This document shows, one piece after another, positions 4,741 to 10,846 of a stretch of DNA of 11,057 nt. Where the stretch lies: the UHGV virus genome UHGV-0152719. One strand, written 5' to 3'. Under the pieces are notes generated by a model. It saw only the letters and a list, made by a program, of their open reading frames with translations. It had not been told where the DNA came from and did not search any database. This DNA is from a virus. Position numbers and translations under genes: made by a program. Position 1 is the first letter of the stretch; each line of letters opens with the position of its first letter.

Positions 4741-4786
4741 TTTTATTTTTACCCCCTCGTTTAAAAAGTTTTGAAATGTGGTGCAC

Positions 4787-5014
4787 CTCCTCTACCTCTC
4801 TACCTAATCATCTTTCAGGTCAGTAATGGCGCGGCTTTCAGATGGGTAGAGGGCTTTCGGGGCCCTCTACCCATCCTCTACCCGCCCCTCACAAATGACC
4901 TTAATCATGGTGGAGGAGGTAGAGGGCTTTTATTTGCCTTCTACCTGGCCCTCTACCTGCTTATCATATTGAATAATATATATTTATTTTCTTTAGGTAG
5001 AGGAGGTAGAGGGC
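4787..5014. repeat. Iteron array with AT-rich core: putative origin of replication
   Basis: Ten copies of an 8-bp motif in both orientations: CCTCTACC at 4789, 4864, 4875, 4950; variants TCTCTACC 4797 and TTCTACC 4939; GGTAGAGG at 4845, 4918, 4996, 5006; three carry the longer form GGTAGAGGGCTTT. AT-rich stretch 4958-4995. Sits immediately 3' of the primase-helicase gene. Confidence 0.65.
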
Positions 5015-5026
5015 TTTTGTCTAAAA

Positions 5027-7691: not shown

Positions 7692-7881
7692 GACTCACTC
7701 CCTGGCGGATTTTTGCAGCGAATACAGCAACACAACCGGACGGGCAACGGCTACGCGCTTCGCGTTCCGTCCAGGCGGTTACGTGGATGATTTGAGATTC
7801 TCCGGCACTCAGTGCCAGAAAACGCCACACAAAGGCCGTTTGTGTGTGTACAAGGTGTGGTATATGATTTACAGCAACCAT
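7684..7881 (-). CDS. Hypothetical protein (65 aa), first gene of the minus-strand replication operon
   Basis: Corresponds to the C-terminal 65 codons of the 356-aa track ORF; internal ATG at 7881 is preceded by a canonical AGGAG SD (ctAGGAGccgttATG); the remaining upstream part of the long ORF is low-complexity and antisense to better-supported plus-strand genes. Confidence 0.5.
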   Translation of the reverse strand: MVAVNHIPHLVHTQTAFVWRFLALSAGESQIIHVTAWTEREARSRCPSGCVAVFAAKIRQGVSHA

Positions 7882-8071
7882 AACGGCTCCTAGTTTACGT
7901 TGTTGGTTAGACGCCCCGTATGTGTTCCCAGCACTGCGGGGCGTTGCTCTTTGTATTTCAACAATCCTTTCGGTGTGTTTCATGTTATGAGCACATGAAA
8001 CACACGTCAAGGCTTTTTGTATTTCTTTTTTTGTGTATACTGAAACACACCGATGATTAGGAGTTTCAGAA
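7882..8071. promoter_or_regulatory. Divergent promoter/operator region between the minus-strand replication operon and the plus-strand regulator genes
   Basis: Perfect 12-bp inverted repeat gtgtgtttcatg-(9 bp)-catgaaacacac at 7973-8005 plus a third half-site tgaaacacac at 8041-8050; minus-strand sigma70-like promoter TTGACG (8005-8010) -17 bp- TAACAT (7982-7987) overlapping the palindrome; plus-strand -10-like TATACT at 8036-8041; 8-bp stem hairpin acgccccg...cggggcgt (7911-7944) in the minus-strand leader. Confidence 0.5.
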
Positions 8072-8377
8072 ATGGCAACGGCTAACAAAAACGCAAAATC
8101 ACAACTGACAACTGTCAGAGTCCCACTAGATGTTATGCAAGGGATGGAATCCGTTAAGCTGGACGGTGAAAGCAATGCCGGATTTATCGTAACCGCCATG
8201 CGCGGAGAAATAGCCCGCCGCCAAGCAGAAGGCAGCGGAGAAAATCCCCTTGTGTCGTCACTGGATGCCCTGGCTAAGGTCGAACAAATCGGCATCAAAG
8301 CAGCCGAGGAGATCGGGCAACTCGTCACCGTCGCGCGTGAAGAACTCCAGCGACGCAAGGTCAAAGAGCATGAATAG
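8072..8377 (+). CDS. Putative ribbon-helix-helix-like DNA-binding protein (101 aa), candidate island regulator
   Basis: AGGAG SD 8 nt upstream of ATG; N-terminal TTVRVPLDVMQGMESVKLDGESNAGFIVTAMRGEIARRQ fits a beta-strand/helix/helix Arc/CopG-like pattern (inference only); divergent from the replication operon. Confidence 0.5.
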   Translation: MATANKNAKSQLTTVRVPLDVMQGMESVKLDGESNAGFIVTAMRGEIARRQAEGSGENPLVSSLDALAKVEQIGIKAAEEIGQLVTVAREELQRRKVKEHE

Positions 8378-9604: not shown

Positions 9605-10846
9605 TCACACCACCTCTTTATTAAGCTCGATAACGTTGTTGTTAAATCCTGCTATCGTATTAAGGTAATTAACCCACATATTAAGCACCTCAAGTTTTTT
9701 CTTTATATGCCTGCTTTTATTGTAAACACCAGCAACCCCTTTCACTTTATGACCTAAAAGAAGTTCGACAATATAAGGATCCGCCCCCATATCATTAAGC
9801 GTAGTGGAAAATGTGCGCCTGAAATCATGTATGCACCACAAGCCATTAGTATCATGACCAAGACGCCTGCATATTCTGTTTGCAGCCCCTGTTATTGTCG
9901 CCCTTTGCAAAGCACAACCGACAACATAACCGCAATTTTTTGTTTCTGCGTAAAGATTAACGATCCATTGTTTTATTCCGTCAGGAACAGGCCTTACTAT
10001 AGCCTCCTTGTTTTTGCTGTGCTCTTTTGGGACTGTCCATACCCAGTTTTTTAAATCCCATTCGTCCCAGGTGGATAGCCTCGCCTCCTGCTGTCGGCAA
10101 CCAAACACCAGGCAGATAACCATTATTCTTCGGTTATATATTGATGACAGAGTTAGCAAATTATTACCGTAAGCATAAGACCATACATCAGCGGTTTCAT
10201 TGATATTAAGAACGCGATCCCTTATACCGGATGAGCGCCCGACATAACTTACGTTAATATCTCCAAAGGGATCGCACGCGATGTATTGCCTGACGCGACA
10301 AAAACGCAACGCCTGTTTGATATCAAGAAAAATTGCACCAGACATAACAGGCGCATTTTTTTTGATCCTGTCAAAGACGGTAAGCCATGTGTGTAATTTG
10401 CACTGTTCTATAGCCATATCACCGATATAGGGGAAGATATGCTTTTCAAATCGTTTTATTAAATATTCATGCTCTTTTCTGGCTGTTGTGGCGTGATTGT
10501 CGTACCAGTAAAACAGCGCATCCCTTACGGTCACTGGTTGCATAGTTTTTTCGGCAGCAAGTTTTATTTGCCTGCGGGGGTCCAGATTTTCAGCCAGCCA
10601 TTCACGGCACTGATCACGCATGCGCCTGGCCGTTGCAAGAGACATGTCAGGATAGCGACCAAGTGTAAGCCATACCGGAGGGGATTCCCTGCCACCAAGA
10701 CGATAGTAAAAAACAAAGCTGATCCCCCCAACCATGCTTACACGCACAGACAACCCGCGCCCATCCGCTATTGTTTTTTGTTTGTCCTGCCGTTTTCCGA
10801 CAAGACTCTTTAACAGTTTGTCACTGAGTTTGTTTTCAATAGCCAT
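9605..10846 (-). CDS. int: Tyrosine site-specific integrase, P4-type
   Basis: 413 aa; N-terminal P4-integrase-like arm-binding region (MAIENKLSDKLLKSL...GRGLSVRV); catalytic-domain motifs including HDFRRTFST and the GVAGVYNKS tyrosine region; GAGGG SD upstream. Confidence 0.9.
   Translation of the reverse strand: MAIENKLSDKLLKSLVGKRQDKQKTIADGRGLSVRVSMVGGISFVFYYRLGGRESPPVWLTLGRYPDMSLATARRMRDQCREWLAENLDPRRQIKLAAEKTMQPVTVRDALFYWYDNHATTARKEHEYLIKRFEKHIFPYIGDMAIEQCKLHTWLTVFDRIKKNAPVMSGAIFLDIKQALRFCRVRQYIACDPFGDINVSYVGRSSGIRDRVLNINETADVWSYAYGNNLLTLSSIYNRRIMVICLVFGCRQQEARLSTWDEWDLKNWVWTVPKEHSKNKEAIVRPVPDGIKQWIVNLYAETKNCGYVVGCALQRATITGAANRICRRLGHDTNGLWCIHDFRRTFSTTLNDMGADPYIVELLLGHKVKGVAGVYNKSRHIKKKLEVLNMWVNYLNTIAGFNNNVIELNKEVV

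Follow-up and report, generated by a model that had tools for sequence, protein, structure and literature searches.

Organization of the locus

The window (the whole stretch of 11,057 nucleotides that was analysed; UHGV virus genome UHGV-0152719) has the gene content of a phage-satellite-type island. Its genes, and the control elements predicted between them, are arranged as follows:

10846-9605, minus strand: integrase (annotation)
9603-9346, minus strand: AlpA (annotation)
9289-8711, minus strand: Bro-N protein (annotation)
8072-8377, plus strand: divergent gene of the YlcI/YnfO family (NF041551, E = 1.6e-17)
7970-7982 (inverted), 7996-8005 and 8041-8053: three copies of the operator-like repeat TGAAACACAC(CGA) (repeat search)
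7982-8010, minus strand: predicted sigma-70 promoter of the icd operon (TTGACG 8010-8005, 17-nt spacer, TAACAT 7987-7982; consensus scan)
7881-7684, minus strand: Icd-like gene (icd), 65 aa, first in the replication operon (NF033153, E = 1.2e-17; same ORF in RefSeq)
after icd, minus strand: three small ORFs, then DUF4222 (operon order)
6781-5027, minus strand: P4-type primase, same operon
beyond the primase, per RefSeq: a hypothetical gene and an SSB gene, then capsid, decoration, HTH and small-terminase genes

The divergent region that separates icd from the YlcI/YnfO-family gene is 190 nt long and contains the hairpin that is the subject of this analysis. The icd ATG occupies 7881-7879 on the minus strand, and the complement of its AGGAG is the CTCCT at 7887-7891, one base away from 7886-7890, where the first-pass annotation had put the ribosome-binding site. 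The stop codon of icd overlaps the ATG of the next ORF (7691) by 8 nt (ATGCTTAA). The minus-strand promoter was the sole sigma-70-like site in the scan of the region; transcription of the operon would start near 7975, which gives a leader of about 94 nt. The leader of roughly 95 nt in the first-pass annotation agrees with this value, and the hairpin does lie, as placed there, between the predicted promoter and the ribosome-binding site of icd.

The operator-like repeats overlap the predicted promoter of icd and also the region where the YlcI/YnfO-family gene starts, and the copies at 7970-7982 and 8041-8053 form a 13-bp inverted pair. Their position suggests that they may function as operators, with the YlcI/YnfO-family product as the probable repressor acting on them. 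A sequence search of the PDB with the YlcI/YnfO-like protein returned nothing significant.

Several further features of the island were recorded. An iteron of 8-10 nt (CCTCTACC / GGTAGAGG) is present in at least 11 copies, in both orientations, at 4785-5017 of the window; the copies surround an AT-rich stretch (4965-4992). This region immediately follows the P4-type primase gene and is probably the replication origin of the island. The iteron hairpins are the most stable folds in the window and attract spurious miRNA matches in Rfam. In E. coli CFSAN018748 (L001), the island lies between two phage portal-protein CDSs (1-545 and 11391-12272) of a prophage, and past the int side there are packaging and lysis genes of lambdoid type; the arrangement is read as a satellite inserted in a prophage portal gene, the two CDSs being candidate halves of that gene.

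Two open reading frames through the hairpin were considered and rejected. A 356-aa minus-strand frame (8754 to 7684) is regarded as a shadow ORF, as its upstream 291 aa have no Pfam or NCBIfam match and RefSeq uses the same icd ATG as here. This frame spans the whole divergent region and runs antisense to the YlcI/YnfO-family gene; its length is unusual, and an IMG/VR contig (L122) has a 323-codon counterpart. A plus-strand peptide ORF at 7920-8060 begins with an ATG in the variable apical region of the hairpin, and this ATG is not conserved.

A stem-loop that favors the plus strand

7910-7945, plus strand: SL2, the hairpin, proposed as the terminator stem of an antisense RNA (fold, covariation, strand asymmetry)

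The core of the hairpin is an inverted repeat, ACGCCCCG at 7911-7918 and CGGGGCGT at 7937-7944, whose arms pair over 8 bp, 7 of them G-C, across an 18-nt gap. The first-pass annotation had described precisely this GC-rich stem, with both arms correctly located, and had assigned it an 18-nt loop. The spacing is right, but the loop is not open: in plus-strand RNA the stem is 16 bp long (7910-7920 with 7935-7945, a bulge at U7921, and 7922-7926 with 7930-7934), includes three G.U pairs and closes on a CCC triloop at 7927-7929. The plus-strand 46-mer folds with -25.4 kcal/mol (z = -4.7), a value matched by none of 200 shuffles, whereas the minus-strand 46-mer reaches -18.4 kcal/mol (z = -2.5) and its helix stays at about 8+3 bp. 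Among the plus-strand local folds of the whole window, SL2 ranks second in stability.

Perfect 8-bp stems with loops of 3-20 nt occur 3.5 +/- 2.1 times per dinucleotide-shuffled window, so the bare stem is not beyond chance. What raises SL2 above that level is its G-C content, its plus-strand fold and, above all, its conservation with compensatory changes, which are kept across 91 distinct homologous sequences.

The first-pass annotation had suggested that the hairpin could be an attenuator or processing site in the operon leader, on the mRNA strand. The sequence that follows it on this strand is CUAACCAACAACG, and the variants have a mean of 1.2 T in 10 nt; with no U-tract there, the hairpin is not an intrinsic attenuator. 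Folding of the leader, one of the checks suggested for that proposal, gave no support to it, as mRNA-strand stretches of 111 and 85 nt fold no better than their shuffles (z = -1.3).

Conservation and strand-specific covariation

Matches to a 236-nt region around the hairpin are found in about 1200 complete E. coli genomes. Their extent varies: they cover the full length, the hairpin and right flank, icd and the hairpin to about 7954, or only some 50 nt at the hairpin itself. Each of the loci inspected is an island of the type int-alpA-...-DUF4222-primase/helicase with the hairpin immediately ahead of an Icd-like gene, and the hairpin is therefore a mobile module tied to icd. The module moves as a unit among islands with differing flanks.

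A pattern scan of IMG/VR with the conserved left flank yielded about 120 loci, among which the hairpin takes 54 distinct forms. Each of these is more stable as plus-strand RNA (mean -24.0 kcal/mol, range -21 to -30) than as minus-strand RNA (mean -17.3 kcal/mol). Two alignments were used to examine pairing, A1 with 84 sequences (MAFFT) and A4 with 94 covariance-model matches; most of the sequences were gathered by a pattern that fixes 17 nt of the module, and related enterobacterial islands dominate. RNAalifold recovered the hairpin from A1, with compensatory changes present. For the specified structure, 98.6% of the cells in A1 are paired on the plus strand vs 69.4% on the mirrored minus strand, with 563 G.U cells vs 1, counts that do not represent independent events because the sequences are related. 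None of 500 shuffles reached the observed pairing, and registers slid along the alignment are 35-57% paired.

The same asymmetry is seen for SL2 in A4, with 98.9% of cells paired on the plus strand vs 84.9% on the minus strand and 166 G.U cells vs 1. In 8 of the 13 pairs both sides have changed, and a single position may show as many as six pair types; one pair of columns contains AU 44, CG 32, GU 11, GC 3 and UA 1, another CG 30, UG 30 and GC 22. G.U pairs are found at at least nine positions and in different lineages, and A.C combinations are essentially absent on the plus strand. Neither a minus-strand RNA nor a duplex-DNA palindrome nor neutral drift would be expected to give such a pattern, which argues that the hairpin structure is selected on the plus strand, antisense to the operon.

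The trimmed module was turned into a covariance model, which matches the window on the plus strand at 7871-7958 with 69.2 bits (E = 8e-17) and on the minus strand with 14.3 bits. Protein similarity alone was used to collect 24 further Icd-like loci; the model matches every one of them (50-87 bits), and in all of these the element lies at the same position, antisense to icd and abutting the start codon. P4 gave no match to the model. An alignment of divergent Icd proteins revealed no conserved stretch, and a protein-based scan of species genomes returned a single locus.

Components of the proposed antisense module

The conserved element comprises more than the hairpin, and its parts are located as follows:

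7863-7868, plus strand: -10-like hexamer TATGAT, candidate antisense promoter (inside icd codons 5-7)
7876-7908, plus strand: SL1, a second stem-loop (MFE structure, covariation)
7946-7958, plus strand: T-rich tail GCTCTTTGTATTT, proposed 3' end of the antisense RNA (tail composition, homology breakpoint)
about 7873-7957, plus strand: predicted cis-antisense RNA of about 80-85 nt, consisting of SL1, SL2 and tail (fold, covariance model)

SL1 pairs 7876-7885 with 7898-7908, leaving U7903 unpaired, and its 12-nt loop (7886-7897) displays the anti-Shine-Dalgarno sequence CUCCU at 7887-7891; CUCC(U) is likewise displayed in several divergent variants. The 3' half of SL1 is the near-invariant CGUUGKUGGUUAGA (CGTTGKTGGTTAGA), and the 5' half complements the translation-initiation region of icd. 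SL1 is paired in 92.2% of cells on the plus strand vs 76.2% on the minus strand, with 211 G.U cells vs 24, and its inner stem shows compensatory exchanges among AU, UA and CG.

The 14-nt CGTTGKTGGTTAGA segment (7898-7911), at which SL1 joins SL2, is nearly invariant in alignments A1, A2 and A4. On the mRNA strand, this stretch is CA-rich and unstructured and lies just upstream of the Shine-Dalgarno sequence. Because one icd class can occur with different SL2 tops, and one SL2 top with different icd classes, the segment may be a recombination joint between icd-side and regulator-side modules.

Downstream of SL2, among 54 distinct tails, T frequency is 0.91, 0.85 and 0.80 at positions +5 to +7 past the stem and falls to 0.2-0.3 by +10. 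The T-rich tail is present on the plus strand only and persists though the sequence beyond it differs. Islands of the O157 type diverge from the window past about 7954, and homology among many islands ends just after the tail. The tract is interrupted, following UU(Y)GYNNUUU (UUGCUCUUUGUAUUU in the window), with a mean of 5.2 T in the first 10 nt and in a few variants 3, so that termination efficiency is uncertain. SL2 has the G+C-rich stem and short loop of a Rho-independent terminator; a generic terminator scan did not call it.

Of 76 distinct segments upstream of SL1, 75 have a hexamer of the form TAnnnT, placed 4-10 nt ahead of the bases that complement the icd ATG, and this holds for differing Icd N-termini; part of this conservation could be protein constraint, as the hexamer overlaps coding sequence. 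In the commonest variant, and in most relatives, the hexamer belongs to an extended -10 element (TGgTATGAT or TGgTATAAT), and TAGAAT, TACGAT, TATGCT, TACTAT or TACACT occurs in variants with unrelated N-terminal codons. The extended TGn occurs in 49 of the 76 segments, and in 48 of the 61 that are not of the window type. Changes seen in the hexamer are non-synonymous and keep or better it, as in a His to Tyr change that yields TATAAT; no synonymous change that breaks it was seen among the variants. The candidate promoter has no recognizable -35 element, the window variant is without TGn, and the consensus scan did not call it. The position of the hexamer implies a start at about 7873-7876, where the covariance model also begins.

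Taken as a whole, the 85 nt from 7873 to 7957 fold with -33.6 kcal/mol (z = -4.5) on the plus strand, compared to -24.2 kcal/mol (z = -1.3) for the complement. Every base of the predicted RNA would have its complement in the icd mRNA, over the 5' UTR, the Shine-Dalgarno sequence, the ATG and the first two or three codons. What the sequences present at this site is a plus-strand structure with conservation and covariation, a fixed place over the icd start, a -10-like hexamer and a T-rich tail.

Interpretation and alternative explanations

Based on these data, the hairpin is probably the stem-loop (SL2) of a Rho-independent-type terminator that ends a cis-antisense RNA of about 80 nt, which would mask the Shine-Dalgarno sequence and ATG of icd. 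We infer from sequence and conservation that this RNA is made, where its ends lie and how it acts. RNA-level control of the icd operon appears to be the most likely function. In this respect the idea of RNA control in the first-pass annotation is partly supported; the strand differs, as the structure is selected on the one opposite to the leader.

The mRNA-leader reading, in which a minus-strand hairpin of P4 type would act as attenuator, processing site or stabilizer, now appears improbable. The hairpin does fall within the predicted leader of about 94 nt, its mostly Watson-Crick stem retains -18.4 kcal/mol in the mRNA, and an Icd-like gene heads the operon, as it does in P4. However, each plus-strand G.U pair becomes an A.C mismatch on the minus strand, lowering the paired fraction from 98.9% to 84.9%, and every variant is weaker there. 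The minus strand also offers no U-tract (1.2 T in 10 nt) and a leader fold at shuffle level (z = -1.3), and the C4 and isrK models, which detect P4, are silent here. There is very little likelihood that the element works at the DNA level, as a protein-binding palindrome or as a single-stranded-DNA hairpin with a role in priming or packaging. A G+C-rich inverted repeat near operator-like repeats might be taken for such an element, and single-stranded DNA hairpins tolerate G.T pairs. Yet the strand asymmetry rules out a duplex-DNA palindrome, and the arms vary freely as far as pairing allows, one position showing AU, CG, GU and UA, unlike a protein site. The probable origin, moreover, is elsewhere, at the iterons (4785-5017), and the fixed link to the -10 hexamer, the icd start and the T-tail fits transcription.

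It is also unlikely, if less so, that the plus-strand structure is the leader or terminator-attenuator of the divergent repressor gene (YlcI/YnfO or RHH-like), or a terminator that insulates against antisense transcription leaving the operon, with no dedicated antisense RNA. A small plus-strand repressor-like ORF lies within about 65-130 nt downstream of the module in every context examined (8072-8377 in the window, and 2673-2846 and 2677-2868 in two O157 islands, L004 and L005), and the scan found no strong separate plus-strand promoter for the gene in the window. Against such a leader stands the break in inter-island homology right past the tail, which indicates that the module ends there. 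The icd promoter and operators, furthermore, are interposed between SL2 and the repressor gene, and SL1 with its anti-Shine-Dalgarno sequence and the -10 hexamer at the icd start are conserved jointly with SL2. Any plus-strand transcript through this site would in any case still be antisense to the icd translation start.

A simple model for the antisense RNA would be as follows. Transcription would start at about 7873-7876 from the TATGAT inside the first icd codons, and the RNA would fold into SL1, with the anti-Shine-Dalgarno sequence in its loop, and SL2, ending in the T-rich tail at about 7950-7958. This RNA, probably constitutive, would pair with the operon mRNA, the first contact probably being made loop to loop with the complementary mRNA hairpin. 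Ribosome binding to icd would be blocked, and the duplex would probably be a substrate for cleavage by RNase III. Loss of icd translation would lower expression of the replication genes by uncoupling and polarity, a downstream drop that is expected because icd is translationally coupled through the 8-nt stop/start overlap. Leaky transcription would thus be held silent until the operon promoter is strongly derepressed, and the protein repressor at the operator-like repeats and the antisense RNA would together form a two-layer lock.

Relationship to known RNA regulators

Cis-antisense RNAs over ribosome-binding sites are regulators of a classical kind. The sar RNA of phage P22, a cis-antisense RNA of about 70 nt, is transcribed from a promoter at the beginning of its target gene, backwards across the ribosome-binding site of that gene; the immI region of P22 is controlled in addition by small ribbon-helix-helix repressors, including one read divergently. 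A similar layout is seen here, with icd reading leftward, the predicted antisense RNA reading rightward from its start, then the operator-like repeats and a probable small repressor gene reading rightward. It differs in that there is no sequence or Rfam relationship to sar, in that the target is the icd gene of a satellite replication operon rather than an antirepressor, and in the two-hairpin form and variable SL2 apex, which are specific to the icd antisense module. The sar RNA of immI (mnt / arc / ant) was reportedly the subject of work by Liao, Wu, Susskind and McClure in 1987.

The c4 RNA of P1 and P7 and the CI RNA of P4 (RF01695) are small RNAs that control operons in which icd or an Icd-like gene is the first to be translated, as is proposed for the module. 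In P1, the block of icd translation by c4 RNA silences the downstream gene by polarity. P4 has C4 at 8507-8420, upstream of its Icd-like domain (NF033153, E = 7.8e-21). C4/CI RNAs are in sense orientation in the leader, are processed from the transcript and use short target sites, whereas the module described here is on the opposite strand with its own candidate promoter and terminator. Neither C4/CI (RF01695) nor isrK-like (RF01394) RNAs were found in the window (E <= 1) or in the 300 nt at 7780-8080 (E <= 10), and the same search detected both in P4 as a positive control, with 74.9 and 60.8 bits. The window and P4 share the Icd-like gene; of the likeness to P4 drawn in the first-pass annotation, the functional analogy, RNA control of an icd-led operon, survives, and membership in the P4/C4 group does not.

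Tandem Icd-like genes were observed in the IMG/VR contig L122 (403-1149). The first carries the antisense module (1065-1149), and the second ORF (870 to 403) is preceded by an RF01695 RNA (715 to 628, 72 bits), as in P4. With one RNA type at each gene, both systems co-occur in a single element.

Type I toxin-antitoxin systems such as Sok/hok and SymR/symE offer another parallel, a structured, constitutive cis-antisense RNA over the start of a small, potentially growth-inhibiting protein. The Icd-like protein differs from such toxins in that it is not a hydrophobic membrane peptide, and the target here is the first cistron of a long operon, not a toxin gene standing alone; no hok-type fold-back or leader-peptide features were seen at this locus. 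It is the family name (host cell division inhibitor Icd-like), the one basis for the comparison on this point, that suggests toxicity.

Distribution and implications

The module is present in 1181 of 5426 complete E. coli genomes (about 22%), in up to 5 copies, and is never annotated as an RNA in RefSeq. It is absent from 50,697 phage records. Rfam 15 has no family at the module site, in the window (300-nt region, E <= 10) or at 12 diverse related loci, and the Rfam matches in the window are only miRNA-like false positives on the iteron/origin hairpins. A tRNA origin was considered for the conserved GGTGGTTAGA, a 10-mer also found in the D-arm of tRNA-Ile, and was rejected as coincidence; ARAGORN found no tRNA, and the fold is not tRNA-like. 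A literature search that included the text of the EcCIEDL933 cf-PICI preprint and the EcCIMP1 paper retrieved no icd antisense RNA, and these two sources mention neither an RNA layer nor a role for the Icd-like first gene.

The current view is that phage-inducible chromosomal islands are induced by way of AlpA and signals from the helper phage. As a tentative proposal, for which the chances are somewhat below even, the module may define an undescribed family of cis-antisense 'immunity' RNAs of PICI and capsid-forming PICI satellites, the EDL933 island included. Such RNAs would take the place of the C4/CI-type RNA at the icd start and add an RNA threshold to an induction that is at present explained by AlpA alone, and the variable, covarying SL2 apex between invariant flanks would form specificity groups that spare up to five co-resident islands cross-talk.

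If the proposal is correct, replication of the satellite, and a putative cell-division inhibitor, would be under a second, post-transcriptional lock, and the P1/P4 C4/CI RNAs would have a natural counterpart that is invisible in current annotation. The EDL933 island (L005), which carries the module at NZ_CP008957.1 1682866-1682979, appears to be the prototype EcCIEDL933; EcCIEDL933 is an established experimental system, in which the antisense RNA is directly testable.

Other islands show variations on the arrangement. In one contig (L016), two copies of the module lie about 790 bp apart, at 9683-9767 and 10469-10553, the second being divergent (59.8 bits), which suggests tandem icd/antisense units. 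Islands of the O157 type are without an annotated divergent gene, and their unannotated plus-strand ORFs (L005 2677-2868 and L004 2673-2846) have weak similarity to Arc, HicB-RHH and YlcI/YnfO. These small ORFs are probably real genes encoding divergent repressors; with them, the layout looks general and recalls P22 immI (Mnt/Arc and sar RNA). RefSeq instead has long minus-strand ORFs in these islands (L005 2568-3311 and L004 2345-3289), called 'hypothetical protein', 'ash family protein' or an Icd-like pseudogene and having no Pfam or NCBIfam match. The consequence for annotation is that these minus-strand calls overlie the predicted antisense RNA and a probable small plus-strand repressor gene.
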